A DNA stretch of 64,000 bases from NCBI GenBank assembly GCA_038231275.1, contig JBBRLQ010000028.1, forward strand, positions 44,155-108,154, written 5' to 3'. Positions 4,761 to 41,290 of this stretch are shown here, piece by piece (position 1 is the stretch's first letter; every line of letters begins with the position of its first letter). Both the position numbers and the translations under genes were made by a program. This stretch comes from Polyangiales bacterium. Its GTDB lineage: Bacteria; Myxococcota_A; Polyangia; Polyangiales; Polyangiaceae. A model generated the notes under the pieces. It saw only the letters and a program-made list of their open reading frames with translations, did no database searches and had not been told where the DNA came from.

Positions 4761-4762
4761 CC

Positions 4763-5740: not shown

Positions 5741-5749
5741 GGTGATTCG

Positions 5750-7618: not shown

Positions 7619-7625
7619 TCCTGGA

Positions 7626-8834: not shown

Positions 8835-8901
8835 GGGCGACCGAGTCTAGATCATCCCGCGGCACGATCGATTCGATCGCGCCCGCGCGTTCGGCGTTCG
8901 A

Positions 8902-9324
8902 CTACGCCGCGCGCCAGAAGACGCGATCGACGATCGCGTAGGAGATCCCTCCGGCGCCGCGCGCGACGACGTGGACGACGTAGTCGCCGACCTTTGCGTG
9001 CTGCCCGACGTCGAGCAGCCACTGCGCCGCGCGCGTCCCGATCGCGAGGAGCCCCGCGCCGAACGGTTGCCGTTGCGAGACCGCCGCCCGCACTTCGAGG
9101 CCTCCGAGCTGGTGCACCGCCGCCTGCCGCAGCTCGATGCCTACAATTACCCACACGTGCCCGCCCTCCGAGACGGTCACGGCGTCGCCGTTGCGCGTGA
9201 CCCGAACGCGGCGATCCAGGAGGTTGCCGAGCGTCACCGCGGTGGGAAGCGCGTCCCGAAGCACGCGAAGATCGGAGATCTCGTCGCTCGAGGCGCCTTC
9301 GGCACGGGGCGGGGTCAATAGCAT
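8902..9324 (-). CDS. Hypothetical protein
   Basis: 140-aa ORF with ordinary globular composition that fills the gap upstream of the MFS gene; no motif recognised. Confidence 0.45.
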   Translation of the reverse strand: MLLTPPRAEGASSDEISDLRVLRDALPTAVTLGNLLDRRVRVTRNGDAVTVSEGGHVWVIVGIELRQAAVHQLGGLEVRAAVSQRQPFGAGLLAIGTRAAQWLLDVGQHAKVGDYVVHVVARGAGGISYAIVDRVFWRAA

Positions 9325-9571
9325 TTGCTTCTCTCGGCTCGTCCTTGGAACACGCGATCGCGTCGCGTACTTCCCTGGAACACGCCAGCTGCCCCCCGGG
9401 TTGGTTGACGAAAATCCGGCGCTCGACTATCCCGAGCGGCCCCAGCGGCCATCCGTTCTGCGGCCGACGGCCTCGACCTGGACGCTTTCCCAAAAAGCGC
9501 CTCAAAGAGCGCGGATTCCCCCAATAAATTCAAAACGTAAGCGTCGCGGGCCGTGACGCACGAGGTACGAC

Positions 9572-9988
9572 GTGTCCTTTGCCTTCCAAAAAGTAGAACC
9601 GAAGGGATCTCCGGGAGTCGCGCAGCCCGACGGCGCCAGCCCGCCGAGCGGAGGCAGCTCGGCCGGCGGCGGCCTGAGCATGCTCTTCCCGCTGCTCATC
9701 ATGGTGCCCTTCCTCTTCTTGATGTTCCGGCGTCAGAAGAAGGAGCAAGCGGCGCGCTCCAGCTTGAAGAAGGGAGACACCGTCGTCTCGCAGAGCGGCC
9801 TCGTCGGCGAGCTCATGGAGATGGACGAGAAGCTCGCGAAGGTGAAGATCGCCCCCGGCACCACCGTCCGCATGCTCGTCACCTCGATCTCGCCCATGGT
9901 CACCGAGGCCGACAAGAAGGCCGCCGACGCCGCCAACAAAGACCTGAAAGACCTGAAGGACGCGAAGGTCGCTGCGGAGAAGAAATAG
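9572..9988 (+). CDS. yajC: Preprotein translocase subunit YajC
   Basis: One TM followed by RRQKKEQ..SSLKKGDTVVSQSGLVG; immediately upstream of secD. Confidence 0.92.
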   Translation: MSFAFQKVEPKGSPGVAQPDGASPPSGGSSAGGGLSMLFPLLIMVPFLFLMFRRQKKEQAARSSLKKGDTVVSQSGLVGELMEMDEKLAKVKIAPGTTVRMLVTSISPMVTEADKKAADAANKDLKDLKDAKVAAEKK

Positions 9989-12046
9989 ATGCCTGCCTCG
10001 CGGCGCAACGCGCTCGTGCTCGCTCTGGGCGCGATCGTGTGCGGATTCCTCTTTTACAAGGCCGACTCGTTCTGGGGCGTCATCACCTGCGGCCTCGTCA
10101 GCCTCTGGGCGGCCATCGGCGCGCTGCCCGTCATGGACGGCGGCTGGCGCTTCAAGACCGGCCTCGCCATGGTCACGCTCATCGGCGGCTCCATCATCTT
10201 GTGGCCCACCATCGAGTCGATGAGCGGCGGCCGCGCGAAGTGCCCGGCCTACTTCAAGGACAACATCAAGTTCGGCATCGTCAAAGGCCTGGATCTCCAG
10301 GGCGGTATGCGCCTCGTTTACACGGTGGAGGTCGAGGAGGCGATCCGCGACAAGCGTGACCGCTTCGCCGACGAGATGCGGCAAGAGCTCGCCATCTCGT
10401 ACAAGTTCCACTCGGGCGACGGCGTCATCACGCGCGACGCCGCCAACAAGCTAGAGGAGAAGGTCCACGTCTCCCTCCCGGAGTCGGCGGTCATCAAGGT
10501 CAAGTTCACCGACCCGGCCGACATCGCCAAGATCGACGATCGCTTCAACAAGAAGTTCGGCACCGAGATGGCGCAGCAGCGCTCGGCGACGCCCGGCGAG
10601 GTCTCGTTCAAGATCCGCGGCGAGGTCGAGACCCAGATCCGCGAGCGCGCCGTCGCGCAGGCGAAGGACACGGTCAGCAAGCGCGTCGACGAGATGGGCC
10701 TCCGCGAGGCGAGCGTCACGATCCGCGACGAGGACATCATCATCGAGGTCCCCGGTCAGGATCAGAAGGCGTTCGACGACATCAAGGAGATCATCCGCAA
10801 GACCGCCCGCCTCGAGTTCAAGATGGTGGACGACGAGGGCGCGGGGAAGTTCTTCAACATCCCCGAGAGCCAGGTGACCGCCGTCGAGAAGGAAGGCATC
10901 TCGATCTTTTTCGAGCAGGCTCCCAACGGCCCCGGAAAATCGGTCGAGAAGGCCTACTACGCCATCATCAACCGCCGAAACGACGACAAGGGAAACTTCA
11001 CCGAGTCGCTCACCGACACGCTGAAGCGCTTCAAGGCGTGGACCGCCACGCTGAACGTGTCCGACGATCACCAGATCGGGTACGCGATCCGCACCGAGAA
11101 TACGACCGACGACGTCACGGGCGCCGTCGAGACGAAAGAGGTCGGCTGGCGCACGTACTACCTCTTCTCGCGCGCCGAGGTGACGGGCGACTACATCACC
11201 GACGCCATGGTCTCCCAGGACACCAACCAAGGCATGGGCGGCTACTACGTCGGCATCACGTTCAGCCCGGCCGGCGCCGATCGCTTCGAGGAGATCACCG
11301 GCGCGAACATCCAAAAGCGCTTCGCGATCATCTTGGACGACACGATCGACTCGGCGCCCGTCATCAAGTCGAAGATCGCCGGCGGCCGCGCGAGCATCAC
11401 GCTCGGCGCGGGCGATCCGGAGACGCAGCTCGCCAACGCACGGAAGCTCGAGCTCGTGCTCCGCTCCGGCGCGCTGCCTGCGCCGATCACGCCGTCGAAC
11501 GAGTCGATGATCGGCCCGAGCCTCGGCAAGGACGCGATTCAGCAGGCCGTGAAGGGCATGCTCGTCGGCAGCTCGCTCGTCCTCGCGTTCATGATGTTCT
11601 ACTACCGGAAGAGCGGGATCGTCGCGGACCTGGCGGTCCTCTTCAACCTGTTCCTCCAGATGGCGATCCTCGCGTCGTTCTCGGCGACGATGACCGTCCC
11701 GGGAATCGCCGGCCTCGCGCTGACGCTCGGCATGAGCGTCGACGTGAACGTGCTCATCAACGAGCGCATTCGTGAGGAGCTCCGCGCCGGCCGCAGCATC
11801 CGCGCCGCCGTCGACGCCGGGTACGACAAGGCGTTCTCGTCGATCTTGGACGGCCACGTCACCGTCTTCATCTCGGGCCTCATCCTCGCGCAGTACGGCT
11901 CGGGCCCGGTCAAGGGCTTCGCAGTGACGCTGATCGTCGGCATCATCTGCAGCCTCTTCACCGGTGTATTCTGCACACGCCTCGTCTTCGAGTGGTGGGT
12001 GCGTCACGCGAAGGTCAAGCGCCTCTCGGTCGGAGCGGAGTTTTAG
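9989..12046 (+). CDS. secD: Protein translocase subunit SecD
   Basis: GLDLQGG, LRSGALPAP, IGPSLGKDAI, GMSVDVNVLINERIREE, VKGFAVTL. Confidence 0.97.
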   Translation: MPASRRNALVLALGAIVCGFLFYKADSFWGVITCGLVSLWAAIGALPVMDGGWRFKTGLAMVTLIGGSIILWPTIESMSGGRAKCPAYFKDNIKFGIVKGLDLQGGMRLVYTVEVEEAIRDKRDRFADEMRQELAISYKFHSGDGVITRDAANKLEEKVHVSLPESAVIKVKFTDPADIAKIDDRFNKKFGTEMAQQRSATPGEVSFKIRGEVETQIRERAVAQAKDTVSKRVDEMGLREASVTIRDEDIIIEVPGQDQKAFDDIKEIIRKTARLEFKMVDDEGAGKFFNIPESQVTAVEKEGISIFFEQAPNGPGKSVEKAYYAIINRRNDDKGNFTESLTDTLKRFKAWTATLNVSDDHQIGYAIRTENTTDDVTGAVETKEVGWRTYYLFSRAEVTGDYITDAMVSQDTNQGMGGYYVGITFSPAGADRFEEITGANIQKRFAIILDDTIDSAPVIKSKIAGGRASITLGAGDPETQLANARKLELVLRSGALPAPITPSNESMIGPSLGKDAIQQAVKGMLVGSSLVLAFMMFYYRKSGIVADLAVLFNLFLQMAILASFSATMTVPGIAGLALTLGMSVDVNVLINERIREELRAGRSIRAAVDAGYDKAFSSILDGHVTVFISGLILAQYGSGPVKGFAVTLIVGIICSLFTGVFCTRLVFEWWVRHAKVKRLSVGAEF

Positions 12047-12048
12047 TC

Positions 12049-13299
12049 ATGGAGTTGTTCAAGCCAGGTCGGCAGTTCGACTTCATGGCGCAGCGGTGGT
12101 TCTGGATCCCGCTGTCCCTCGCCCTCGTCGCCATCTCCACCGCGTTCTCGTTCTGGCCGGAGACGGTGTGGCCGTACGGCCCCAACTACGGGACCGACTT
12201 CCGCGGCGGGACCGAGATCGAGGTCGCGTTCGCCAAGCCCTTGAGCTTCGAGGGGCAAGAGGGAGCTGCCGCGCTCCGCCGCGCCGTCGAGGCGAGCGGG
12301 TTCTCGACGCCGGATGTCGTGCAGGTCGGCGACAACGCGAAGAACCAGTTCCTCGTCCGCGTGCAGGACGTCAGCGTCATCGCCGAGAGCGCGAAGGACT
12401 TGGTCAAGAAGGCGCTGTGCCTCACCACCGACTCCAAGGCGCCCGTGGGCGACGAGGCGGCGTGCCCGGTTCGCGCGCGCGCGACCGAGGTGAAGTTCAG
12501 CGCCGGCGGCGACAAGGTGGCGACGCGCTACGACTCCGATCCCGATCTCGAGAAGGTGAAGGCGCAGCTCCAGTCGGTGCCCGGCGTCCGCCTGCGCGCC
12601 AGCCCCACCAACCCCCAGGTCACCAACCAGCGCGACCATCGCGTCGAGATCCAGCTCGAGAGCAAGGGCGACCAGCTCTTGAACTCGCTCCGCAGCAAGC
12701 TCGGCGACGCCGTCCCCGACCACGCGCTCCGCGTGGAGTGGGTCGGCCCCAAAGCGGGAAAGCAGCTCCGCGACAGCGCACGAAACTCGGTCGCCATCGC
12801 GATCGTCTTCATCATGCTCTACCTCGCGTTCCGCTTCGACCTGCGGTTCGCGCCCGGCGTCGTCATCGCGTGCATCCACGACGCGATGGTGGTCATCGGC
12901 ATGTTCATCGTCCTCCACAAGGAGATCACGCTGAGCACCATCGCCGTCGTCCTCACGATCGTCGGCTATTCGATGAACGACACCGTCGTCATCTACGACC
13001 GAATCCGCGAGAACCTCGGCAAGCACCGCGGCAAGACGTTCGCGCAGATCATCAACATGAGCGTCAGCGAGACTCTCTCGCGCACCATCCTGACCTCAGG
13101 CGCGACGATGCTGTCGGTCCTCGCGTTCTTCATCTGGGGAACCGGCGTCATCAAGGACTTCGCGCTCGGCATGGTCATCGGCATCGTGGCCGGCACCTAC
13201 TCGAGCATCTACGTGGCCGCGCCGCTCACCGAGTGGATCGACAAGAAGATGTCGAGGACGAGCGACGTGAAGAAGAGGCTCGAATCCCCAAAAGGCTGA
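12049..13299 (+). CDS. secF: Protein translocase subunit SecF
   Basis: GTDFRGGTEI, VGPKAGKQL, HD, GYSMNDTVVIYDRIRE, TLSRTILTS, GTYSSIYVA. Confidence 0.97.
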   Translation: MELFKPGRQFDFMAQRWFWIPLSLALVAISTAFSFWPETVWPYGPNYGTDFRGGTEIEVAFAKPLSFEGQEGAAALRRAVEASGFSTPDVVQVGDNAKNQFLVRVQDVSVIAESAKDLVKKALCLTTDSKAPVGDEAACPVRARATEVKFSAGGDKVATRYDSDPDLEKVKAQLQSVPGVRLRASPTNPQVTNQRDHRVEIQLESKGDQLLNSLRSKLGDAVPDHALRVEWVGPKAGKQLRDSARNSVAIAIVFIMLYLAFRFDLRFAPGVVIACIHDAMVVIGMFIVLHKEITLSTIAVVLTIVGYSMNDTVVIYDRIRENLGKHRGKTFAQIINMSVSETLSRTILTSGATMLSVLAFFIWGTGVIKDFALGMVIGIVAGTYSSIYVAAPLTEWIDKKMSRTSDVKKRLESPKG

Positions 13300-13300
13300 C

Positions 13301-13318
13301 GCCGCGCCTCGGCGCGGC
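13301..13318 (+). terminator. GC-rich hairpin after secF (possible terminator)
   Basis: GCCGCGCC-TC-GGCGCGGC directly after the stop; no U-tract. Confidence 0.35.
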
Positions 13319-13401
13319 ACCCTGAGAGCCTCTCTGCTGCTTGCACGTCGATCTCATCCGTTGTAGACCCCGGGCGCCCCGAAGGGGACTGGGGGTCTGC
13401 C

Positions 13402-13698
13402 ATGAGTATCCGTACGTCTGCCTCGCTGGTCGCGCTCGTTCTGCTCGGTGCCACCGCGTCGTTCGCGGCTACGCAGCGCCGCGTCGCGGGGATCATCACG
13501 CACGTCGAGGCGGCGAAGCTGTCCATCACGCCGATGCACGCCAAGACCGCCGTGACGGGGCGCCTGGTGCCTGGCAGGACCGTGGTGCTCGTCGATGGCC
13601 ACTCGGCGCAGATTGCAGACCTGAAGGTCGCGTGCGACGCGAAAGCGGAGCTCGGCCTCGACGACGCCTGGATCTCGGTACGCGCCGACTCGCAGTGA
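13402..13698 (+). CDS. Small secreted hypothetical protein (possibly OB-fold-like)
   Basis: Signal peptide (ASFA); beta-rich mature part GIITHVE...VDGHSAQIADLKV. Confidence 0.55.
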   Translation: MSIRTSASLVALVLLGATASFAATQRRVAGIITHVEAAKLSITPMHAKTAVTGRLVPGRTVVLVDGHSAQIADLKVACDAKAELGLDDAWISVRADSQ

Positions 13699-13717
13699 TA
13701 ACCTCCGACGCGGTGGG

Positions 13718-14527
13718 ATGAAGCACGAGCACGTCAAGACGCCCAAGGGTGAGGTGCTCATCTCCTTCCGGGGAGTGAAGAAGTCGTTCGGGCCCAAGGT
13801 CATCTACACCGACCTGAACCTCGACATCCGCCGCGGTGAGACGACGACCATCCTCGGAGCGTCGGGCAGCGGCAAGAGCGTCATGCTCAAGATGCTCATC
13901 GGTCTCCTCACGGTCGACGCAGGAGAGATCATCTTCGACGGCGCGGACGTGTCGAAATACGACGAGCACCAGATGATCGACGTTCGCCGTCGCGTCGCGT
14001 ACCTGTTCCAGGGCGCCGCGCTCTTCGACTCGCTCGACGTCGGCGAGAACGTCGCGTACGGCCTGCGCGAGCAGTACTGGAACACGATGACCGACGCCGA
14101 GATCCGCGCGCGCGTGTCGCAGTCACTCGGGCTCGTGGGACTGCCGGGCATCGAGCAGATGCGCCCCAGCGATCTCTCCGGAGGCATGAAGAAGCGCGTC
14201 GGCCTCGCGCGCACGCTCGCGCTTCAGCCCGAGGTGCTCCTCTACGACGAGCCGACCACCGGTCTCGATCCGATCAACACGGCGCGCATCAACCACCTCA
14301 TCAACGGCATCAAGCGCGCCCTGGGCCTCACCAGCATCGTCGTCACGCACGACATGGGTACCGCGTTCACCGTCTCCGACCGCCTCGCGATGATCGGCCG
14401 CGGGCGCGTGCTGATGAGCGCGCCCAAGGACGAGTTCAAGAGCACGCAAGACAAGTACGTCCGCGACTTCATCGACGGCCATGCGCCGGAAACCGAGGAC
14501 GTCGACTCGCTGCTCTCCACGTCGTGA
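13718..14527 (+). CDS. mlaF: ABC transporter ATP-binding protein, MlaF/Mkl family
   Basis: GASGSGKS; FQGAALFDSL; PSDLSGGMKKRVGLAR; YDEPTTGLDP; VTHD. Confidence 0.88.
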   Translation: MKHEHVKTPKGEVLISFRGVKKSFGPKVIYTDLNLDIRRGETTTILGASGSGKSVMLKMLIGLLTVDAGEIIFDGADVSKYDEHQMIDVRRRVAYLFQGAALFDSLDVGENVAYGLREQYWNTMTDAEIRARVSQSLGLVGLPGIEQMRPSDLSGGMKKRVGLARTLALQPEVLLYDEPTTGLDPINTARINHLINGIKRALGLTSIVVTHDMGTAFTVSDRLAMIGRGRVLMSAPKDEFKSTQDKYVRDFIDGHAPETEDVDSLLSTS

Positions 14528-14548
14528 GCCATTTTCGCGCGCGCCTCA

Positions 14549-14576
14549 CGCCGCGCTGGAATGCGCGGCGGTTTTC
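14549..14576 (+). terminator. Probable intrinsic terminator after mlaF
   Basis: CGCCGCGC-TGGAAT-GCGCGGCG stem-loop followed by GTTTTC. Confidence 0.5.
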
Positions 14577-14591
14577 AGGTCAAAAGGAGAG

Positions 14592-15563
14592 ATGAGCCTT
14601 TCTTCGTACAAGCCCCGGGTCGCCGCGGCGTCGGTCGCGTGGCTCGCGTGTGGCCTCGCGGTCGCGTGCTCGTCGAGCTCGTCCACGGACACGCCGGGCG
14701 CCGACGCGTCGGTCCCGCCGCACGACGCGACGACCGGCGCCGACACGAACGCGCCCGCCGACCAGGCCGCGCCTGACGCGGGCGGGGGCGACGACGCATC
14801 GGACGGTGCGGCGACGGCGAACCCCGCGCACGTTGGGTTTTTCTCGTTCAAGCAGTTCGAGGCCCCGCGGTGGGATTTCGGCGGAGGCTTCGTCTCGAAC
14901 GAACCGACGCCGCCGCCGAACCCCTACTACACCTGCACCACGTCGACGGCGGGCGAATGCACGCTCTCGATCTGCACGCCCATCGACGGCGGTCCACCAC
15001 CACCTCCTCCTCCGCTCCTCGTCTTGGTGAACCCGGGCGACATCACCGTCACCGGTGGCACCATCCCGGCAGGGACCAAGCTGGCGGCGGTGGACGGCGG
15101 CGGCAACGGGAGCTCGGTGGGCGCCGCAGGCGTCGTGGTCGTCAACGGGGACGTGATCCGCGTGTCGGCGCCTGGCAGCGCGGATGTTCCCGCTTTCGCG
15201 CTCTCGATCGTCGCGAACCCGACGTACACCGTCACGAACCCCGCCTGCGACGCGGGGACCTGCCCTGGTGTCGACCGCACGAAAGACTACGTCTTCACCT
15301 GGACGGGCCTCGCCCAGGGCACGCTGCAGGTCGCGTTCGCCTACGTGAACGGGCCACCGCTCGACCGCATCGTCTGCAATTTCCCGGGGGCGGCGGGGCA
15401 GGGGACCATTCCGTCTTCGCTGCTCACGCAGTTCCCCGGCACCGCGGGCATCCAGCTCGAGGCGGTCTCGAAGAACGTGACCCGCGCGGTGGTCGGCGAC
15501 TACGGCACGACGATCGACTTCACCGGCAACTACTTCGACAGGGTCTTGCCGATCGTCAACTGA
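14592..15563 (+). CDS. Hypothetical lipoprotein with DAG/Pro-rich linker
   Basis: AAGGAGAG RBS; lipobox AVAC-SSSSS; Cys pairs and a poly-Pro tract. Confidence 0.75.
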   Translation: MSLSSYKPRVAAASVAWLACGLAVACSSSSSTDTPGADASVPPHDATTGADTNAPADQAAPDAGGGDDASDGAATANPAHVGFFSFKQFEAPRWDFGGGFVSNEPTPPPNPYYTCTTSTAGECTLSICTPIDGGPPPPPPPLLVLVNPGDITVTGGTIPAGTKLAAVDGGGNGSSVGAAGVVVVNGDVIRVSAPGSADVPAFALSIVANPTYTVTNPACDAGTCPGVDRTKDYVFTWTGLAQGTLQVAFAYVNGPPLDRIVCNFPGAAGQGTIPSSLLTQFPGTAGIQLEAVSKNVTRAVVGDYGTTIDFTGNYFDRVLPIVN

Positions 15564-32070: not shown

Positions 32071-32079
32071 GTGCTAAGA

Positions 32080-33306
32080 ATGCCCCCTTCGAGGTCCGTC
32101 TTGCCGAAAAGTCGCCTGTCCGTCGTCGCCTTGCTCTCTGCCGCCGCCGTCGTGGCGGCTGCCGCGTGCGGTGGCTCCTCCTCCCACGATCTGATCGGTC
32201 CGGACGGCGACGCTGGCTCCAGCGGTACGTCCGGCGCGAGCGGGACGAGCGGCACGTCCGGGACGAGTGGCACGAGCGGGACGAGCGGCACGAGCGGGAC
32301 CAGCGGGACGAGCGGGACCAGCGGCACGAGCGGGTCGAGTGGATCGAGCGGATCGAGCGGATCGAGCGGCAGCTCCGGCTCCACCGGCACGCTCCCCGAC
32401 GGCGGCGCGATCGCCTACACGTCGGCGGTGAAGATCATCGTCGAGCCGTCGGACAACGGCCAGGCGCTCCTCGATGCGATCAACGCCGCGAAGACGAGCG
32501 TGCACGTCACGATGTACCTGCTCACGTTCAACGGCCCGGTCTACAAGGCGCTCATCGCCGCCAAGAGCAAGGTCGAGGTGAAGGTCGTCCTCAACCAGAA
32601 TTTCCCGGGCGGTCAAGGGAGCAACGTCTCCACCTACAACGGCCTCAAGGCCGCCGGGGTCAACGTCGTATGGGCGCCGTCGGTCTACACGTTCACCCAC
32701 GAAAAATGCGTGATCCTCGACACCGCGACGGCTTGGATCATGACGATGAACGCGACGGACTCGTCGGCGTCGCAGAACCGCGAGTACCTCGCCGTCGACA
32801 CCGACGCCGACGACGTGAAGTACGCGGAGCAGATCTTCGAAGAAGACTTCACGGGCGCCGCCGCCAACGTGAGCGGCAAGCTCGTCCTTGCGCCGATCAA
32901 CGCCAAGGCCCGCATCTACGCGCTGCTCAAGTCGGCCACCACGAGCATCGACCTCGAGGGCGAAGAGTTCAGCGACATTGATCTCACCAACATCATCGCC
33001 GCCAAGGCCGACGCCGGCGTCGCGGTGCGCGTGGTCCTCGCCGACAACACGCCGACGCCGTCGCAGCAGACCTCCGTGACGACGCTGAAGGCGCACAAGA
33101 TCACCGTCAAGTCGATGTCGAACCCGTACGTCCACGCCAAGGCGATCGTCGTCGACGGCGTGCACGCCTACGTCGGCTCGGAGAACTTCACGAGCGGCTC
33201 GATGACCGGCAACCGCGAGCTCGGCGTGCTGTTCGACACGGCCGCGGAGGTCGCAAAGGTCACGACTACGATCGCGGCGGATTTCGCCGCAGGAACGGCG
33301 CTCTAA
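32080..33306 (+). CDS. Phospholipase D-family lipoprotein
   Basis: Lipobox AAAC; (SGT)n linker; two HKD motifs HEKCVILD and [16 protein letters not shown]. Confidence 0.9.
32215..32390 (+). repeat. Coding low-complexity repeat (SGT)n(SGS)n
   Basis: 9-bp units such as AGCGGGACG, AGCGGCACG and AGCGGATCG inside the PLD linker. Confidence 0.85.
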
Positions 33307-33343
33307 CCTTAGGGCACGGCGAATACGATATAGGTTCGTCCCT

Positions 33344-34855
33344 ATGTCCGACGAAATCACGCAAGCGCGGACCGAAGCGCGGCTCGCGAAGGGATTCCGA
33401 GACGTCGAAGCGGCTGAAATTCGCCGACACGACGCGATGATCGCCACGATCCGTTCGGTCTACGAGCGCTACGGCTTCGAGCCGCTCGAGACGCCGGCCT
33501 TCGAGTACACCGACGCGCTCGGAAAATTTCTGCCCGATCAGGATCGCCCGAACGCCGGCGTCTTCTCCGTGCAAGACGACGACGAGGCGTGGATGAGCCT
33601 GCGTTACGATCTCACGGCGCCGCTCGCGAGGTACGTTGCGCAGAACTACGAACGGCTCCCCAAGCCGTATCGCCGCTACGCGACCGGCCCGGTGTTTCGG
33701 AACGAGAAACCGGGCCCCAGCCGTTTCCGTCAGTTCGTTCAGTTCGACGCGGACACCGTCGGGACCGAGAACCTCGCGGCCGACGCCGAGCTCTGCATGC
33801 TCGCCGCCGACACGTTCGAGGCGCTGGGAATTCGGCGCGGCGACTACATCGTAAAGCTGAACCACCGGAAGCTCCTCGACGGCGTCCTCGAAGCGATCGG
33901 CGTCACCGCAGCGTCCGACGCCGACGGCAGCAAGCGACTCGCAGTGCTTCGCGCGATCGACAAGCTCGACCGACTCGGCAACGCCGGTGTGCTTGCGCTC
34001 TTGGGGCCTGGCAGAAAAGACGAGTCGGGCGACTTCACGAAAGGCGCCGGGCTCGACGCCGCCGCGACGGACGTGGTCATGCGCTTCGTCGGCGCGACTG
34101 CCGCAAACGAGGAGACGGCCCTGTCCACTGTCGAAGCGCTCGTGGCGTCGTCCGAAATCGGGCGCGCGGCGGTCGCCGATCTCCGGCAGCTCGACGCGCT
34201 CCTCAAGGGGGCAGGGTACGGCGCGGACCGCATTCGCTTCGACTCGACGGTCGTGCGCGGGCTCGAGTACTACACGGGGCCCGTCTTCGAGGCGGAGCTC
34301 ACCTTCGAGATCAAAGGGGACGACGGAGCGCCCGTTCGCTTCGGGGCCGTCGGCGGAGGCGGGCGCTACGACGATCTCGTCGCGCGATTTCTCGGCCAGA
34401 AGGTACCCGCCACAGGCTTCTCGGTGGGCGTGTCGCGTCTTCAGGCGGCGCTTGCCCATCTGAAACAAGACGACGCCGGCGCGACGCTCGGTCCAGTGGT
34501 CGTCCTCGTCATGGACCGCGCGGAGCTGCCGCGGTACCAGGCGATCGTGCAGACCCTCCGGCACGCGGGCATTCGCGCGGAGATGTACCTAGGCACGTCG
34601 GGAATGAAGCCGCAGATGAAGTACGCCGACCGGCGCAATAGCCCGTGCGTCGTCATCCAGGGATCGAACGAGCGCGCGAACGGCGAGATTCAGCTGAAGG
34701 ATCTCATCGAGGGGGCCAAAGCCGCCGCGTCGATCAAGGACAACAAGGCGTGGAAAGAAGCACGCCCCGCCCAAGTGACGATCAAAGAAGCGGACCTCGT
34801 CGACGAAGTCCGCCGTCTGCTCGCGCGGCACGACCCTCCAGCCGAGCATCCTTGA
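33344..34855 (+). CDS. hisS: Histidyl-tRNA synthetase, alphaproteobacterial-like type
   Basis: [22 protein letters not shown] (HisA), [20 protein letters not shown] (motif 2), VRGLEYYTG (HisB), [17 protein letters not shown] (motif 3), QMKYADRR anticodon-binding domain. Confidence 0.97.
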
Positions 34856-34876
34856 ACGATGAACGTCGAAGCGACT

Positions 34877-34953
34877 TGGTACCAGCTCTCGGGGTCGAAC
34901 CGAGGACCTCTAGATCCACAATCTAGCGCTCTAACCAACTGAGCTAAGCCGGC
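34877..34953 (-). tRNA. tRNA-His(GUG), CCA encoded, no encoded G-1, G1:U72, A73
   Basis: GCCGGCT TA GCTC AGTTGGTTA GAGC G CTAGA TTGTGGA TCTAG AGGTC CTCGG TTCGACC CCGAG AGCTGGT A CCA forms a full cloverleaf of 77 nt. The base 5' of G1 is C. Confidence 0.97.
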
Positions 34954-35076
34954 GTACAGAAACGGTTCCTCTCAGAAACCGCGACAATTCGCTTCCTAGC
35001 ATAAGACCGACGAGCGGTCGACGCAATCTGTCGCTAGGCCGATCTGCCCGGGACGGAGGGGCGTAGACGCTGCAAG

Positions 35077-35682
35077 GTGGCAGTCCCGACCGGCGCGCAG
35101 AAGGACGAGGACAAGGACGACAAGGATCCCTGCGCGACCTGCGACGCCGACAAGAAGGCCAAGAAGAAAAAGGAGCGAGACGCCAAGGTCGCCAAGATGA
35201 CGGCCAAGCTCGATCCCCAGCTGAAGGCGGACGTCGAGAAGTCGCCGGAGCTGCAGAAGGATCTCGCCGAGCTCAATGACAAGGGCTGGACCGTGCGCGA
35301 GGATCCGAGCTTGAAGCCGCCGACGGCAGGCGTCACGAACTCCGCGACCAAAGAGATCACGCTCGCCTCTGGAAGCGACACCGGCACGCTCGCCCACGAA
35401 GTGCAGCACGCCCTGAACAGCGAATCGGGTCAGTATCAGCCGCCGCAGATCGGCTCGATGAGCCGAAGCGACTTCGTGAGCGCGGCGACGCAAGCGTCGG
35501 TGCAGGACGAGCGGTCGGCCTTCGGGAATCAGAACCTCGTGAGGAGCGAGATCTTGGCCAACGGCGGCCGCGACATCGGCCCCGTCCGGAGCTTCGGGTC
35601 GCTCTACCAGGACGCGTACACGAGCTACTACACGAACGCCTACGGCAAGTACTACGATACGTATGCGCCGGGAGGGAGGTGA
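35077..35682 (+). CDS. HEXXH zincin-like protein, candidate toxin/effector
   Basis: ITL....TLAHEVQHALN with a downstream DERSAF Glu; charged N-terminus with CxxC. Start uncertain. Confidence 0.6.
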   Translation: MAVPTGAQKDEDKDDKDPCATCDADKKAKKKKERDAKVAKMTAKLDPQLKADVEKSPELQKDLAELNDKGWTVREDPSLKPPTAGVTNSATKEITLASGSDTGTLAHEVQHALNSESGQYQPPQIGSMSRSDFVSAATQASVQDERSAFGNQNLVRSEILANGGRDIGPVRSFGSLYQDAYTSYYTNAYGKYYDTYAPGGR

Positions 35683-36134
35683 CGCCGATGAGCCACTGGA
35701 TCACCTCCCTCGTCGAGCACGTCGTACGGCAGCGGATGCCCCCAAAGAGCGGAGGCCTCTGGACCGGGCTCGGCGTTCCCGTCGTTCGCACCGAGACGAG
35801 CGGAGACATGGAGTACTTCCAGGGCGCCCTCGACGCCGGCCCCTTCACGAAAGCGGAGCTCCGGGTGAACCGCGCGACCGGCTTCGCGCTGCTCGTCCTC
35901 GCGCCACGCGACGACGCGCCCATCCGAGAAGCGGATCTCGCGCTCGACGCTTACGGGCCCAGTCGGGTCGAGATCACGCCGGACATTTCCCCCGAGGGGG
36001 CGACCACGCTCGTCTTCGAAGTGAACGGGGTCACGGTCCGCTTCCAGCTGACGACCGACGGTCGTGTGCTCCGCGTCATGAGCTTCACGTGGCCGGCGCG
36101 CGCGCTCCATTCGGTTCCGCACGATCGCCACTGA
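35679..36134 (+). CDS. Hypothetical protein, candidate immunity partner
   Basis: GGGAGGGAG RBS; GTGA overlap with the HEXXH gene stop. Confidence 0.55.
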   Translation: MTPMSHWITSLVEHVVRQRMPPKSGGLWTGLGVPVVRTETSGDMEYFQGALDAGPFTKAELRVNRATGFALLVLAPRDDAPIREADLALDAYGPSRVEITPDISPEGATTLVFEVNGVTVRFQLTTDGRVLRVMSFTWPARALHSVPHDRH

Positions 36135-36182
36135 CCGAAGAATCGACCGCGTCCGTTGTCGGGCGTGGTGCGTAGCTTCGAC

Positions 36183-36776
36183 ATGGATCATCGGTTCCCC
36201 GTCTCGAGCACCCCGCCTTGGGCCCGCCATCCTCGTGGCGGCCTGACGTTCGCCCCTCCGAGCGGGTGGCTCGATCGGACGGTCGTCGCGTACACGAGCC
36301 CGGCCGAGTCCACGAAGCCGCTCGCGCCGAGCATCGTGATTACGCGCGAGCCGGTTCGTCCCGGCGACACGCTGCGACTTCACGGGAACCGGCAGCTGAT
36401 GGAGCTCGAGGCGCAGCTCGAGCACTTCGACCTCGTGGAGTCGCGCGAGGCCGAGCTCGGTGGTTTCCCGGCCCTCTTCTATCGCTACACCTGGGTGAGC
36501 CACGTCGGGGCGCTCGAGCAGACGATGACCTTGGCGCTCTCGATGCACGACGGCGATTCGGTGATGACTACGGTGACGACGACCGCCGCGCGCGGGGACG
36601 CACGTGACGCCGACGCCGCGTTCGCAGGCATGCTCGCGACGATGCGCTTCGACGATCCGGGCTCGCCCGAGCCCGCGCGGATCTCGACCATCGTGCCGGC
36701 ACCGGCGGCCGTCGCCTCGATGGCGGACCTTCCCAGTTTTCCCATGCCCGGCGTCGGCCGCGGCGCCCGTCGCTGA
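36183..36776 (+). CDS. DcrB/DUF1795 (Eag-type) T6SS effector chaperone
   Basis: PSGWLDRTVVAY..SIVITRE..QL..L...LEHFDL..YTW pattern; directly upstream of a prePAAR effector. Confidence 0.75.
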   Translation: MDHRFPVSSTPPWARHPRGGLTFAPPSGWLDRTVVAYTSPAESTKPLAPSIVITREPVRPGDTLRLHGNRQLMELEAQLEHFDLVESREAELGGFPALFYRYTWVSHVGALEQTMTLALSMHDGDSVMTTVTTTAARGDARDADAAFAGMLATMRFDDPGSPEPARISTIVPAPAAVASMADLPSFPMPGVGRGARR

Positions 36777-36785
36777 GGCCCGGCC

Positions 36786-38441
36786 GTGAGCGTCACCCTC
36801 GCCGCCCGCATCGGCGACCAAGTCGGGAGCCATTCGGGCGCGCTCGCCGGGCTCTTGACGGGGATCGCCGTCGGCCTCGCGATCGGGGTCGCGATCGCCG
36901 TGACCATCGGCACGGGCGGCCTCGCCGGTCCCGCGCTCATCGGCGCGTACATGGCGATGGCCGGCGGCGCCGTGAGCCTGGGCGCCGTCGGGGGCATGGC
37001 CGGCGCAAAGTTTGGCGGCACGTTCAAGAAGGCCAGCCCATGCGGCGCCATCTCGACGGGCTCATCGAACGTCTTCATCGAGGGCGAGAGGGCCGCGCGC
37101 CGGGGCGTCGACACCGCCAAGCACGGCGCGAAGAAGATCGCGCAAGGGAGCTCCGCCGTCTTCGTGAACGGGTACATGCTCGCGCGCGACCAGGACGGCG
37201 TGGAGTGCGGCGGCAAGATCGTCAGCCACTGCATCAACGTCTGGATCGGCGGCGGAAGGGGCGGCGAAGAGGTCAGCGAGCTCCCCGGATGGGCGAAATG
37301 GCTCCCGGCGATCGCCTTGGCGGGCGGCGCGGTCGCGTTGGTCGGAGGCGTACTCGCGGCAGGTGTCGTCGCGACCGGCGTCATGTTCGGCGCGTCGATG
37401 GTGGGCGGCGCCGTCGGCAAGGCGGTGCTGGGCGCTGCGGGCCGCGGCATCGACGCGCTCGGCGGACGAACCGACGGGCGATGGGCGAGCTTACTGGGAA
37501 CGGTCGGCGAGGTGGGCGGGGGCCTCTTCGGCGGCGTGAAGAGCGCACGCGTCGCGACGCGCGCGGCCGAGTGGGCCGGCGATCTCTTCCCCGCGATGAA
37601 CCAGCCGCTCCTCACGCGAGGCGCGGGCGTGCCGAGCCCGGCGGATCTCTTGACCAGACCGATCGCCGAGCTTTCGCCGAGAGAGCTCGCGGAGAGCCCC
37701 GCCGAGCAGGCTCGCCTCTTTCGCGGCGCCCAGGACGCGCGCGATCGCATGCAGGCGGTGGCGGACGGGGTTCGCGAGAAGCTCGGCCTGCCCGAGACCA
37801 CGCCGTCTGGCCGGCCCACCGCGGAGTCGATGCTCAAGCGCGACGGCGAGGCGGAGTTCTTGCGTGGCGTCGAGGAGAAGTGCGCGCGGAAGGGCTATGA
37901 GCGCATCGGACAGATGGACGACATGGTCCGCGGACGATTCAACGCGCCGGACCGCGCCGCGGTCGAGCAGATCGTGGGCGAGCTCCGCGCGTCGGGCTAC
38001 GAGGTGAAGGAGGTGGTCGGTCCGCGCGTGAGCGATGGCGTCGAAAGCTACTCGCGCTACCACGTCGTCCTCCGCGACGCGGAGACCGGCCTCACCCACG
38101 AATGGCAAGTCGGCACCGACGCGACCACCAGCCTCTACGAGGACCAGGGCATTCGCATCCCCGACTCCCTCGCCGCCGCGCGCGACGCCGCCGGCAAGCA
38201 CTTCAACGACGATTTGCACGACGTTTATTACGATCTGTTCAAGTCGGTGAACCAGCAGAACCCGGACATGGGGCAGCGTTACGGGCTGGGCGACTTCATC
38301 GGCCAGGTCGAGGGGGCTGCGCCGCGCGCCGGCCAGGGCGAGGCCGTCGACGTTGCGGGAATGCACGAGCGCGCCTCGGACATCCTGGCGCGCATGGACG
38401 CGGAGCAAGGTTCACAATGGATCCTCGGGTTCTTCCATTGA
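36786..38441 (+). CDS. prePAAR-TMD-PAAR-TMD effector with a C-terminal RelA/SpoT-like nucleotidyltransferase toxin domain
   Basis: AARIGDQVGSH prePAAR; two Gly/Ala hydrophobic regions; GSSNVFIEGERAAR..GSSAVFVNG..AR..D.VECGGKI PAAR; LKR..EKCARKGY..DDMVRGRF..YSRYHVVL..EWQVGT. Confidence 0.8.
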   Translation: MSVTLAARIGDQVGSHSGALAGLLTGIAVGLAIGVAIAVTIGTGGLAGPALIGAYMAMAGGAVSLGAVGGMAGAKFGGTFKKASPCGAISTGSSNVFIEGERAARRGVDTAKHGAKKIAQGSSAVFVNGYMLARDQDGVECGGKIVSHCINVWIGGGRGGEEVSELPGWAKWLPAIALAGGAVALVGGVLAAGVVATGVMFGASMVGGAVGKAVLGAAGRGIDALGGRTDGRWASLLGTVGEVGGGLFGGVKSARVATRAAEWAGDLFPAMNQPLLTRGAGVPSPADLLTRPIAELSPRELAESPAEQARLFRGAQDARDRMQAVADGVREKLGLPETTPSGRPTAESMLKRDGEAEFLRGVEEKCARKGYERIGQMDDMVRGRFNAPDRAAVEQIVGELRASGYEVKEVVGPRVSDGVESYSRYHVVLRDAETGLTHEWQVGTDATTSLYEDQGIRIPDSLAAARDAAGKHFNDDLHDVYYDLFKSVNQQNPDMGQRYGLGDFIGQVEGAAPRAGQGEAVDVAGMHERASDILARMDAEQGSQWILGFFH

Positions 38442-38485
38442 GTGCAGCGAAGCGCAGCGGAGCGAAACGACTCCTGGCGGAGAGG

Positions 38486-38740
38486 ATGGGCACGAAGATG
38501 AGCTACCGAGTCTTGCAGAACGACCGCACCGCGGCCCTCGAGCGTGATTGCCCCGAATGCGGAACGAAGATGAAGGGAACGGGAGACCTCTACTGGAACA
38601 ACGCCGGCTGGTTCGTGGCGTTCTACTGCCCGCAGCACCGCGAGGTCTTTCCGACGTGGGCGCCGGAGTATGCGCATCTCGTCGACGAGCTCACGCGCGG
38701 CGTCGACCCGCAGACGCTCCCTACGAGGGGCGGCGGCTGA
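38486..38740 (+). CDS. Small Zn-ribbon protein, candidate immunity
   Basis: CPEC...CPQH; immediately downstream of the effector. Start at 38486 or 38498. Confidence 0.6.
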   Translation: MGTKMSYRVLQNDRTAALERDCPECGTKMKGTGDLYWNNAGWFVAFYCPQHREVFPTWAPEYAHLVDELTRGVDPQTLPTRGGG

Positions 38741-38753
38741 AGACGACGCTCCT

Positions 38754-40097
38754 TTACCGCGGCGGCGGCGGGGGAGGCAATTGGCCGACGCAGACGCCGA
38801 CTTCCAGGAGGACGTAGAGGAGCGCCTTCTCTTGCGCGAGGAGGCCTGACGCGCTGTCGCCCTCGCAGTGGTAGCTGCTGAAGAGGACGCGGCCGCACTT
38901 CTGCTCGAAGCTGACGGTGGCGGGGAGGATTTGTCCGCCGATGTCGGAGGTCATCCAGACCTTGGGCGTGATCGTGACCGGCTTGCCGTCGGGATCGACG
39001 CCGGGCTGCGCGTGGACGCTGGCGATGCGCGACCAGCTCGCCTTGAGCTCGATGTCGTTCTCGCCGATCGCCTTCATCCAGCTGGAGAGGCCCGGGTCTT
39101 CGGCTTTGCCCGGCGTGTCTTCGGCACCCGCGCGGCATGCGGTGCCGAGGCCGTCCGACGTCTTGGTCAGCGGGTTCATCACGTAGTCGTACCAAGTGAT
39201 AAACCCCGGCCACGTCTGGCGAACGGCCTCGTAGGAGTAGTCGGTGACGTAGAGCTTGCCGCCGCTCTGCACGTAGGTGTCGAGCGCCTTCTTCTCGCCG
39301 TCGGTCGGCGTGCCGCACACGTTGCCTTGATCGGTCTGCTGGTAGCCCATCGCTGCGCAGGGCATGAGCGTGATGTGGTAGCCGGCGAGCTCGGCGGCGC
39401 TCTGCATGAGATCCATTCCGCTCTTTCCGGTCTTGATGCCGGGCCCGCTGCTCGGAAGCGGAGGAGGAGGATCGCCGTAGCGGTAGAAGTCCTGGATGCC
39501 GAGCTTGTTCATCGAGACTTCGATGTGATCGAAGCCGCCGAGGACCAGCGCGATCTTGGGGATCGTGTCGCCGGCGGGCGCGTCGGTCTTGCCGGGCAAT
39601 CGCGTGAAGGTCGCCTGCACGGGCTGATCGCCGGTCGTGACGTCGAGCTGTCTGACGCGCCGGAACTGCCCTTTTTGAACGACGAGGTACTGCTTGCCGG
39701 TCGTGTACGCGCCGAGATCGAACGTGCCGTCCGCCTTCGAATACGCGTACGGCTGGAGCGCCGTGAGGTGGACGCACGTGTCGCAATACGCGCCCGGGGG
39801 GATCGTCTCGGGCGGATCGTTCGTGAGGTAGACGAGCGCACTACTGATCGGGATCGTGCCCTCGGGGGCGACGACCTTGCCGTGGAGCCAGCCCACTGCG
39901 TTCGGGCGCGGCGTCGCGCTGGCGTCGTGCGACGTGTCGAACGTGCCGCCCTCGCCGCCGCTGCTCCCGCTGCTGCCCGGCCCGCCGCTTCCGGTGGCGT
40001 TCGGATCGAACCCCTTCTTCGACGACCCGCACGCGACGAGCGACGCAGCGGTGAGGAGTCCGAGCGCGGCCATCGACACGATCACGTTTCTCAGCAT
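38754..40097 (-). CDS. Lipoprotein with carboxypeptidase-regulatory-like beta-sandwich and C-terminal alpha/beta domain
   Basis: Lipobox LVAC; GKVVAPEGTIPISSALVY; ADGTFDL; QKGQFRR; GRVLFSSYH. Confidence 0.75.
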   Translation of the reverse strand: MLRNVIVSMAALGLLTAASLVACGSSKKGFDPNATGSGGPGSSGSSGGEGGTFDTSHDASATPRPNAVGWLHGKVVAPEGTIPISSALVYLTNDPPETIPPGAYCDTCVHLTALQPYAYSKADGTFDLGAYTTGKQYLVVQKGQFRRVRQLDVTTGDQPVQATFTRLPGKTDAPAGDTIPKIALVLGGFDHIEVSMNKLGIQDFYRYGDPPPPLPSSGPGIKTGKSGMDLMQSAAELAGYHITLMPCAAMGYQQTDQGNVCGTPTDGEKKALDTYVQSGGKLYVTDYSYEAVRQTWPGFITWYDYVMNPLTKTSDGLGTACRAGAEDTPGKAEDPGLSSWMKAIGENDIELKASWSRIASVHAQPGVDPDGKPVTITPKVWMTSDIGGQILPATVSFEQKCGRVLFSSYHCEGDSASGLLAQEKALLYVLLEVGVCVGQLPPPPPPR

Positions 40098-40228
40098 GGG
40101 CCCCGATATGCACCCCGGATCTCGTGCGCGCCAAGCCCGTCCGTCACGCGCGACGTGCGAGAGACGAGGTGTCGCGCGAGGGAGACACGCGCGTCCGCTC
40201 TCGACGGATGCAATCCACTCGCGACGGA

Positions 40229-40249
40229 CGGAATCGGAATCGGAGTCGG
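40229..40249. repeat. Short hexamer repeat (CGGART)n after the HDAC stop
   Basis: CGGAAT CGGAAT CGGAGT CGG. Confidence 0.5.
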
Positions 40250-41290
40250 TTACCCGAGCTTGTGTCCGGCCTTCGCCGCCCACCGTGCGGCCTTGGCGAG
40301 ATCGGGCGCGTCGACGTCGCGCGGGATGTCCTCTGCGTCGCCGAGCACGAGGCCGCGCAGCGCGGAGCCGAGGCCCGACTCGAGCGACGGCAGATCGTAG
40401 CCGCCCTCGAGCACGAGCAGCGCGCGCCCTTTCGCGTGCTTGTCGGCAATCGCGCCGAGCGCGCGCGCCATCCATCCGAACGCGTCGTCGCTCACGTCCA
40501 TCTGCGCGAGCGGATCGCGCTCCGCCGGATCGAAGCCCGCGCTGATCAGCACGAGCTCCGGCGCGAACTCGTCGAGCACCGGCAGGAGCACTCGCTCGAA
40601 CGCGCCGCGGTAAATCGCGTCGCCGCCTCCGGCCGACAGCGGCACGTTCACCGTCGCGCCGCGCCCGTCGCCTTCGCCGATCTCGTTCACCGCGCCGCTG
40701 CCCGGATAGAACGGGTACTGGTGCGTCGACGCGTAGAGGACGGCCGGGTCGGAGTAGAACATCTCCTGCGTCCCGTTGCCGTGATGGACGTCCCAGTCGA
40801 TCACGGCGACCCGTGAGATGCCGCGTGCGCGCGCGTGGGCGGCGGCGATCGCGACGTTGTTGAGCAGACAGAACCCCATAGCCTGTCCCGGACGCGCGTG
40901 GTGCCCGGGTGGTCGCACCAGCGCGAGCCCTCTCGTCGCGCGCCCCTCGAGGAGCGCGTCGACGAGCGAGATGACGCCGCCGGCCGCGAGCCGCGCCGCC
41001 GCCACGCTCCCGGGGACGACGTACGTGTCCGGGTCGAGGTAGGACTCCTGACCCCGCAGCGCCTCGAGCTGCGTCGTGTACGCCGCGTCGTGCACCCGCG
41101 CGATCTCGTCGGCCGTCGCCTCGCGCGCTGGGACCCGCTGCCACGCCACCTTTGGCTCGAGCGCCGCCGCCGCCGCGCGCGCCGCCACGAGCCGCTCCGG
41201 CCGCTCCGGGTGGTACGCGACCGGCGCGTGAAGATCGAAACGCGCGTCATCCAAGAGGAGCGCGGCGCTTTTCTCGTGCGGTTCGGGCAT
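40250..41290 (-). CDS. Histone deacetylase family amidohydrolase
   Basis: HPERPER, RPPGHHA, GFCLLNN, DWDVHHGNGTQ, SAGFD, LEGGY. Confidence 0.95.
   Translation of the reverse strand: MPEPHEKSAALLLDDARFDLHAPVAYHPERPERLVAARAAAAALEPKVAWQRVPAREATADEIARVHDAAYTTQLEALRGQESYLDPDTYVVPGSVAAARLAAGGVISLVDALLEGRATRGLALVRPPGHHARPGQAMGFCLLNNVAIAAAHARARGISRVAVIDWDVHHGNGTQEMFYSDPAVLYASTHQYPFYPGSGAVNEIGEGDGRGATVNVPLSAGGGDAIYRGAFERVLLPVLDEFAPELVLISAGFDPAERDPLAQMDVSDDAFGWMARALGAIADKHAKGRALLVLEGGYDLPSLESGLGSALRGLVLGDAEDIPRDVDAPDLAKAARWAAKAGHKLG

Follow-up and report, generated by a model that had tools for sequence, protein, structure and literature searches.

The stretch of DNA considered here, called the window below, comprises 64,000 nucleotides (nt) of a metagenome-assembled genome (MAG) of the Polyangiaceae, G000, and corresponds to positions 44155-108154 of its contig C28 (108,154 nt); the assembly has 9.28 Mb in 164 contigs, with 94% completeness and 3.3% contamination. 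It carries a gene for histidyl-tRNA synthetase (HisRS), hisS, and beside it a gene for tRNA-His that lacks the encoded guanosine at position -1 (G-1). The hisS gene runs from ATG to TGA at 33344-34855 on the plus strand and encodes a 503-residue HisRS of the delta-G-1 type, that is, the type of the alphaproteobacterial clade known as RRCH. The tRNA-His(GUG) gene faces it on the minus strand at 34877-34953; it is the sole tRNA of the window according to ARAGORN and scores 66.7 bits (E 2e-14) against the Rfam tRNA model. The stop codon of hisS ends at 34855 and the tRNA 3' end lies at 34877, which leaves a spacer of 21 nt (34856-34876) between the two convergent genes. We think that these genes very probably form a working, self-sufficient delta-G-1 histidine cassette, which would have been acquired from a Hyphomicrobiaceae-like donor, displaced the native pair and moved again within the family.

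The tRNA departs from the canonical bacterial form at the very end of its acceptor stem. G1 is at 34953, and the preceding base of the gene, position -1 (34954, minus strand), is C instead of the G found in canonical bacteria, so that no pair with the discriminator A73 (34880) can form. Among the seven myxobacterial copies this base is C in G000 and its two congeners G001 and G002, and T in G048, G059, G187 and the metagenome contig L194. The acceptor stem consists of G1:U72, C2:G71, C3:G70, G4:U69, G5:C68, C6:G67 and U7:A66, with U72 at 34881 and a second wobble pair at G4:U69, and the CCA end is encoded (34879-34877). The D-loop, AGUUGGUUA, has 9 nt including an extra U20a, and in the anticodon loop, UUGUGGA, the GUG is followed by G37. 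The body of the molecule (positions 1-73) is identical across all myxobacterial carriers examined. In the relatives whose tRNA-His could be located, G-1 and C73 are present in 16 of 16, G1:C72 in 15 of 16, and the D-loop has 7 or 8 nt in all 16; the best BLAST matches of the window's tRNA in relatives reach at most 83% over at most 60 nt, many of them to other tRNAs.

Canonical HisRS needs the G-1:C73 pair. The window's enzyme scores 373 bits on TIGR00442 (cut-off 286.75), comprises the Pfam domains tRNA-synt_His and HGTP_anticodon, and was aligned with HisRS of E. coli K-12, three native myxobacterial enzymes and five of alphaproteobacterial type. In the motif 2 loop, which reads RHERPQKGRYRQF in E. 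coli, Gly124 of the window protein aligns with Gln118, a residue that covaries with C73 of tRNA-His according to the parts of PMC3937112 and PMC9976931 that bear on it; the position is Gln in all three native myxobacterial rows and Gly in all five alphaproteobacterial-type rows. Besides this substitution, the window protein has an 18-residue insertion in the anticodon-binding domain (at about residues 464-481), and like the alphaproteobacterial rows it carries two further insertions in the insertion domain and a short one after the approach to motif 3. The Hyphomicrobium, Phyllobacterium and Caulobacteraceae rows have the insertions of both domains, which neither E. coli nor the native myxobacterial rows possess. 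An initial annotation of the window had already described the tail-to-tail order with its 21-bp gap, the C at -1, the G1:U72 pair and A73, and the Gly in place of Gln118; the coordinates, a direct reading of the tRNA gene and the alignment with the E. coli K-12 enzyme agree with it. It had also pointed to a resemblance to the alphaproteobacterial type, and the protein strings that it quoted are indeed found in the window; the rows of Hyphomicrobium, Phyllobacterium and Caulobacteraceae conserve them too, some of them with substitutions.

The genome that carries this pair belongs to a myxobacterium. The contig of 108 kb also encodes FtsY, 11 kb away from hisS; the best named matches of this protein are to Polyangiaceae, and a 91% match sits on the same 77-kb contig as the cassette of G001; PurA and HisZ of G000 follow family relationships, and the flanks of the G001 cassette are 79-85% identical in nucleotides to those of the window. 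A different worry is that the locus might be an artefact, either an assembly chimera or a misbinned alphaproteobacterial contig. All of the genomes are MAGs, and the Logan unitigs break in the tRNA gene at a jump in depth, which is ~70-fold higher inside that gene, from words shared by many organisms. Nevertheless, the cassette lies in the middle of a 108-kb contig with myxobacterial neighbours and with flanks in common with G001. Logan contigs of the probable source run cover, with zero mismatches, 32725-33498 (from a phospholipase D (PLD)-like gene into hisS), 33469-34924 (from hisS into the tRNA) and the DNA from 34925 onward, and their depth is even, at 7-10, across the PLD-hisS and hisS-tRNA bridges. 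In a relative, hisS and the tRNA are joined by contig X2, which comes from another study, and five other MAGs and a metagenome contig contain the cassette locus as well. Moreover, without the cassette gene the six carrier genomes would have no hisS at all, and stumps of native hisS exist, as described below. Alphaproteobacterial contamination or a chimera is very unlikely, and we give it next to no credence.

The origin of the enzyme was approached by searches and trees. In a search of 5.8 billion proteins, the top matches to the window's HisRS are 85-94% identical, and the named ones among them come from Myxococcaceae or Myxococcales; next come metagenome proteins at 71-77%, ahead of numerous HisRS from Hyphomicrobium, Hyphomicrobiaceae and Alphaproteobacteria at about 66-72%. 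The 80 best loci in species-representative genomes comprise five MAGs labelled Myxococcales, Polyangiaceae or 'delta proteobacterium' (85-94%) and 75 alphaproteobacterial records (55-72%). Among 40 relatives of G000 this type of HisRS is present only in the two congeners (95% and 93%), the other 38, of the same family or order, reaching at most 38%; where the relatives have a HisRS of E. coli type, the window's enzyme is 26-30% identical to it over the matched parts. Maximum likelihood trees were computed from 93 rows, leaving out 26 loci (8 fragments, 4 HisZ-like and 14 near-duplicate Phyllobacterium sequences), and from 44 rows. The six myxobacterial HisRS form one clade in both (support by the Shimodaira-Hasegawa-like approximate likelihood ratio test, SH-aLRT, of 98 and 100), with a metagenome protein as sister in both. 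This clade is nested in a group of Hyphomicrobiaceae (97-98), which in turn falls within the Hyphomicrobiales/Caulobacteraceae clade as sampled (99), and very long branches part the cassette group from the ordinary HisRS of myxobacteria of the same family. With the enzyme grouping in this way, every sequence-level feature that defines the delta-G-1, RRCH-type system is found in the window.

The tRNA points in the same direction. BLAST aligns it over 82-84 nt, at 93-94% identity, with tRNA-His of the Hyphomicrobiaceae genomes G043 and G041, whose HisRS (L071 and L066) are among the nearest named relatives of the window's enzyme; the identity to three other alphaproteobacterial genomes is 88-90%. 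The four differences from G043 and G041, counted by eye, amount to two compensatory stem pairs, 31:39 and 52:62. Enzyme and tRNA, taken independently, trace to one narrow donor group, Hyphomicrobiaceae-like Alphaproteobacteria, and these comparisons support that origin.

How the two genes travelled from that group to the myxobacteria is less directly visible. They are adjacent in none of the 75 alphaproteobacterial genome loci, some of which have short flanks, and in none of the 69 alpha-like metagenome loci, and in the two nearest donor-like genomes they lie on different contigs. Since no sampled alphaproteobacterial locus has the genes side by side, we infer, rather than observe, a transfer in one piece from the original donor. 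Of the co-transfer as a two-gene module that the initial annotation had put forward, the common donor group and the persistent linkage between myxobacteria stand, and the one-piece step out of the donor has this weaker standing. The same lack of linkage, both in every sampled alphaproteobacterial locus and in the nearest donor-like genomes, speaks for two separate alphaproteobacterial transfers, with the genes brought together only later inside a myxobacterium. Yet either gene alone would be nearly useless, given the 250-fold and ~100-fold discrimination measured between the two types (PMC3064791), the enzyme and the tRNA both lead back to one narrow donor group, and in each of the seven myxobacterial copies the pair is linked already, with the genes converging in the same way, so that we consider separate arrival unlikely. 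Among the 75 alphaproteobacterial genome loci counted as unlinked, one, L109, gave an odd 86-nt ARAGORN call with anticodon ATG.

The native pair appears to be gone from the host genome. Only one hisS of G000 exceeds the TIGR00442 cut-off. A second candidate, on contig C4, was rejected: it has 381 residues, 157 bits on TIGR00442 and the Pfam domain tRNA-synt_His only, with no anticodon-binding domain, and was read as hisZ; it lies directly upstream of a gene read from its sequence as purA. Likewise, 86 ARAGORN tRNA calls in G000 include one credible tRNA-His, and a second call of 93 nt (C1:499951-500043) was discarded for its poor cloverleaf and for the absence of any Rfam tRNA match at E up to 10. 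Each of the other five carriers also has one hisS, of the foreign type, and one hisZ-like gene. A native-type tRNA-His gave no match in G000, G001, G048, G059 and G187, the five carriers searched with it, and no genome holding both the native and the cassette pairs was found.

In the place of the native synthetase gene there is a scar. At C29:31765-31878 of G000 (L270 2266-2379, minus strand) lies an N-terminal stump of about 37 codons of a canonical-type hisS, which tblastn with five native-type myxobacterial HisRS matches over 35-38 residues, at 63-66% identity for four of them and 51% for that of G015. Its flanks are syntenic with the neighbours of the intact hisS of G015 and G003, in which the interval measures ~1.3-1.5 kb, against ~0.3 kb in G000, with ~1.2 kb of the gene missing. 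The two congeners G001 and G002 have the same scar, 80-82% identical in nucleotides over the whole stretch. In G059 and G187 no stump of the native hisS was detected, and the same interval measures ~0.4 and ~0.75 kb. These remains support the view that the native G-1:C73 tRNA-His and its HisRS were probably displaced in G000, with a stump left in the ancestral slot.

With a single tRNA-His, it might be thought that the missing G-1 is added after transcription and that the enzyme needs it. Some myxobacteria, namely Myxococcus xanthus, do have Thg1-like proteins with guanylyltransferase activity (PMC3245924), and eukaryotic Thg1 adds G-1 opposite A73. However, Thg1 (PF04446) was found in none of the six carrier genomes, while the control, Methanosarcina acetivorans, matches, and Thg1C (PF14413) was absent from the one genome searched for it, G000, which is 94% complete. 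The HisRS itself has no Gln to read G-1:C73 and is of the type for which an added G-1 lowers efficiency (PMC3064791). A post-transcriptional gain of G-1 on which the enzyme depends is hardly credible in our opinion.

The cassette is rare and patchy in the family. Of the 383 genomes of the family, which span 89 genera, 6 encode its HisRS, and these belong to 4 genera; the tRNA gene follows hisS tail-to-tail in all six carriers and in the metagenome contig L194. The enzyme is far more alike between carriers than their housekeeping genes are: between carrier genera HisRS is 83-94% identical, PurA 55-69% and HisZ 43-60%. For G048 and G187 the respective values are 94%, 62% and 43-46%, and for G000 and G048 85%, 62% and 47-48%, while the congeners G000 and G001 have 94%, 87% and 80-81%. 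The block that is homologous between genera extends from about codon 9 of hisS to ~6 nt beyond the tRNA 5' end, and therefore the cassette measures about 1.6 kb.

The clearest case is that of G048. Its congeners G047 and G049 (PurA 86-89% identical to that of G048) still possess the native pair, with a hisS of 448-450 bits and a tRNA-His of canonical type. The 15-kb contig that holds the cassette of G048 is 70-81% identical in nucleotides to G047 and G049 over 4159-15293, and its hisS is 90% identical in nucleotides to that of G187. In the native hisS slot of G048 a 108-nt piece of the motif 2 region is left, 77% identical to the gene of G049, and in the native tRNA-His slot the flanks are intact and the tRNA is missing together with ~250 nt around it. 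The native pair of the congeners and the closeness of hisS to that of G187 thus indicate that G048 gained its cassette after the split, from a source near the G187 copy.

A single ancient acquisition, in the ancestor of the four carrier genera and followed by vertical descent, would have to ascribe the patchiness to reversions or binning errors. It would fit the fact that the six myxobacterial HisRS form one clade and that the tRNA body is identical in all carriers. The figures for PurA and HisZ given above do not agree with it, nor does the native hisS that the congeners of G048 keep at the syntenic position, which in G048 itself holds a stump. Moreover, the scars differ, with an N-terminal stump in G000, G001 and G002, a motif 2 stump in G048 and none detected in G059 and G187, which argues for separate replacement events. 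Vertical descent from one ancient acquisition seems quite improbable to us. The similarity of the HisRS far above that of the housekeeping genes, together with congeners that have the native pair, supports instead that the cassette has also moved between myxobacteria.

The surroundings of the cassette vary from one carrier to another. The spacer between hisS and tRNA-His varies among carriers, and in G048 it comprises ~870 nt (L171, that is G048:C6, 2650-3520) with an open reading frame (ORF) resembling a HicA toxin (2804-3046, minus strand). Just past the G048 tRNA there is an element of ~100 nt (L171 3658-3764) that repeats on at least six contigs of its congener G049. In G000 the neighbours of the cassette are a PLD-like lipoprotein, a pyridoxal phosphate-dependent Cys/Met enzyme, MarR, a Rieske oxygenase and MlaD. 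Pfam reveals no integrase or transposase in the cassette flanks of G000, G048, G059 and G187, where it finds only a PAAR/DcrB island in G000 and the HicA ORF in G048. Within the window there is no sharp break in GC content around the cassette, and the GC content at third codon positions of hisS is 0.83, the other called genes having 0.81-0.97.

A block of 5.2 kb (35030-40250), which starts 76 nt upstream of the tRNA-His gene, is missing from the congener G001. In it lie an ORF with a DcrB domain (36156-36776), the gene of a protein with a PAAR domain (36786-38441) and small ORFs that belong to no known family, and the block has the look of a polymorphic-toxin island that was inserted next to the tRNA gene. 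On the other side, the PLD-like lipoprotein encoded upstream of hisS (32071-33306) contains Gly-Thr/Ser-Ser triplets in a long uninterrupted series, and Pfam takes these for collagen-like repeats. It was considered as a possible part of the cassette and rejected, as it matches only the two congeners and has no match in G048, G059, G187 or any alphaproteobacterial locus. The hisS of G048 is also preceded by a PLD-like gene, which is not detectably related to that of the window, and the common position looks coincidental.

Regarding expression of the tRNA, a weak candidate promoter (TTGCGT, 17 nt, TATGCT) lies at 34998-35026 on the minus strand, ending 45 nt upstream of G1; it is kept in the three genomes of the genus, as seen in an alignment of the upstream region. 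It scores below the threshold of the consensus scan, which found no sigma-70-like promoter at that threshold. An 11-bp hairpin with a T-rich tail (34789-34814, minus strand), inside the 3' end of hisS and ~63 nt downstream of the convergent tRNA, could act as terminator of the tRNA transcript. It is coding sequence conserved among the carriers, and the terminator-like matches of the consensus scan, which lie inside hisS, were set aside, such matches not rising above those of shuffled sequences. A match to Rfam YrlA in the window (E 0.57) was dismissed as chance.

Other HisRS types in the phylum give a wider setting to the cassette. Among 401 Myxococcota genomes sampled, a delta-G-1-type HisRS 50-56% identical to that of the window turned up in five further ones, which represent four other families: L257 (G417), L259 (G405), L260 (G497), L261 (G506) and L258 (G418). 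The tRNA-His gene adjoins hisS in four of the five. In G417 and G405 it is directly upstream of hisS and has T at -1, G1:U72 and A73, and G497 and G506 show an odd mix of an encoded G at -1 with G1:C72 and A73. In the 44-row tree these five enzymes branch outside the sampled alphaproteobacterial clade, and a tree that forces all Myxococcota sequences together is rejected by the approximately unbiased (AU) test (p = 3.3e-5, for a group named after the tree was seen). The deeper-branching linked pairs in other families suggest that the alphaproteobacterial clade may be one recipient among many. More generally, the delta-G-1 pair could be a mobile, self-sufficient identity cassette, the linked form of which invades unrelated bacteria, briefly coexists with the orthogonal canonical pair and replaces it. 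On this reading, the family studied here would display the process under way, with entries that recur, deletion scars that differ and congeners that have either pair; we put all of this forward tentatively and with more doubt than confidence. A third type of HisRS, 31-38% identical to the window's, is encoded in seven relatives (L009-L015, of genomes G017, G013, G016, G036, G026, G030 and G027) and is related to those of PDB 6nhi and 3net and to human cytoplasmic HisRS. The same seven relatives keep a canonical G-1:C73 tRNA-His, which is not linked to hisS within 1.5 kb.

What the replacement would involve can be described by analogy with the delta-G-1 pair of Caulobacter crescentus, whose HisRS fully charges its G-1-less tRNA (PMC3064791). 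For that enzyme an added G-1 lowers kcat/Km 5-fold, the change U72C 91-fold and changes in the anticodon 91-1000-fold, A73 and U20a being minor elements; E. coli tRNA-His is a 250-fold poorer substrate, and the pair is orthogonal in an E. coli background (PMC3064791). In the same pair, with A73 and no partner for pairing at -1, RNase P cleaves at +1 (PMC3064791). By this analogy, the window's tRNA, with no G at -1 and no -1:73 pair, would be cut at +1 and would begin with G1 when mature. Its HisRS, without Gln118 and with the extra loop in the anticodon-binding domain, would select the tRNA by GUG, U72 and A73, helped by the 9-nt D-loop. Neither type of HisRS would charge the tRNA of the other type well, and only the enzyme and the tRNA together could take over. 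Mutual orthogonality would make a lone gene useless to the recipient, and therefore it is the physical linkage that makes the pair transferable as a unit. Thus, we think that a myxobacterial lineage would have acquired the linked pair horizontally from a Hyphomicrobiaceae-like donor, that this pair would have coexisted with the native one and made it dispensable, and that the native G-1:C73 tRNA-His and its HisRS would have been displaced and then deleted. Within the family, the linked pair would have moved again between distant genera, with the native genes lost each time.

Several points weigh against this account. The mature 5' end and the charging rules are carried over from the C. crescentus data and from a HisRS ~55% identical (the Caulobacteraceae row). 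The Logan contigs break inside the tRNA gene (34924/34925), and none of the independent contigs extends by itself over hisS, the tRNA and the DNA downstream. The HisRS trees come from 'quick' searches with SH-aLRT support only, their alphaproteobacterial rows were picked by similarity to the query, and the group of the AU test was chosen with the tree in view. The genes are unlinked in all the alphaproteobacterial genome and metagenome loci counted above. Finally, all carriers are MAGs, 83-99% complete, in which the absence of native genes is not proof of their loss.

The pair of the delta-G-1 kind belongs to the alphaproteobacterial clade of Rhizobiales, Rhodobacterales and Caulobacterales; it was reportedly described by Wang et al. 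in 2007 and by Ardell and Andersson in 2006, and Yuan et al. characterized that of C. crescentus in 2011 (PMC3064791). The pair in the window has in common with that of the RRCH clade (C. crescentus, PMC3064791) the lack of G-1, G1:U72, C3:G70, A73, U20a and G37 in the tRNA, and in the enzyme the Gly for Gln118 and the same insertions, including that of the anticodon-binding domain. Protein identity to Hyphomicrobiaceae HisRS is ~70%, and tRNA identity is as given above. It differs in that its host is a myxobacterium, that the genes are linked tail-to-tail instead of unlinked as in the 75 alphaproteobacterial genome loci, and that it would be a recent immigrant that displaced a native canonical pair, leaving stumps, and moved between genera again. 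Compared with the canonical identity system (G-1:C73, aberrant RNase P cleavage and Gln118, as in E. coli and Thermus thermophilus, 4RDX), the amino acid, the GUG anticodon, the class IIa fold and the domain order are the same, whereas the window has C-1, A73 and Gly124, and of the canonical hisS only the 37-codon stump on C29 is left.

More distant parallels are the pylT-pylS cassette and the archaeal-type TyrRS and TrpRS of the Candidate Phyla Radiation (CPR) with their tRNAs, as treated in the relevant part of PMC5370408. In these systems too, enzyme and cognate tRNA cross lineages together because their identity rules differ from those of the recipient. They concern new coding capacity or reduced genomes, whereas here an essential pair that already existed has been replaced one-for-one in a large free-living genome, with visible scars. 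The HisRS of Trypanosoma brucei and Acanthamoeba castellanii (PMC4338351, PMC3561963) are likewise reported to be non-canonical and to work without G-1 and without Thg1; they are eukaryotic, evolved independently and are not homologous as a cassette.

That a pair of this type is orthogonal has been published before, for C. crescentus, so that no new property is claimed here. For G-1-less tRNA-His, a 2023 review mentions only alpha-Proteobacteria and protists (PMC9976931). Our full-text literature searches, which did not cover most subscription journals, found no bacterial delta-G-1 case outside the alphaproteobacterial clade. Within the reach of these searches, neither the occurrence in this phylum nor the physical linkage nor the displacement documented here has been published before. 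The main expectation of the initial annotation, that loss of G-1 extends to another phylum, is borne out by the myxobacterial host, which it had feared might be alphaproteobacterial (FtsY, PurA and HisZ), and by the HisRS, which in the two trees nests in Alphaproteobacteria, within Hyphomicrobiaceae, as it had proposed to verify. The other doubts that it had raised were also dispelled: the recurrence of the locus in five other MAGs and a metagenome contig, with even depth over the junctions, speaks against a chimera, and G000 has yielded no second tRNA-His, no second hisS and no Thg1.

In our opinion, it is well supported that a linked cassette, of an alternative type already known, has replaced an essential synthetase and its tRNA across a phylum boundary, and the evolutionary traces of this exchange are unusually clear. 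G-1 on tRNA-His is among the most conserved identity marks in biology, and here an alternative set of rules for histidine has been transplanted whole into another phylum, where it can serve all the His codons of a 9-Mb genome. The takeover leaves datable scars, namely the stumps of native hisS and the emptied tRNA slot. The sister species with the old pair (G047 and G049) and with the new one (G048) make testable the old question of how an essential synthetase and its tRNA can be exchanged with no lethal intermediate. For synthetic biology, the cassette would offer, by analogy with C. crescentus, a compact orthogonal His pair of 1.6 kb, the portability of which across phyla has already been shown by nature.

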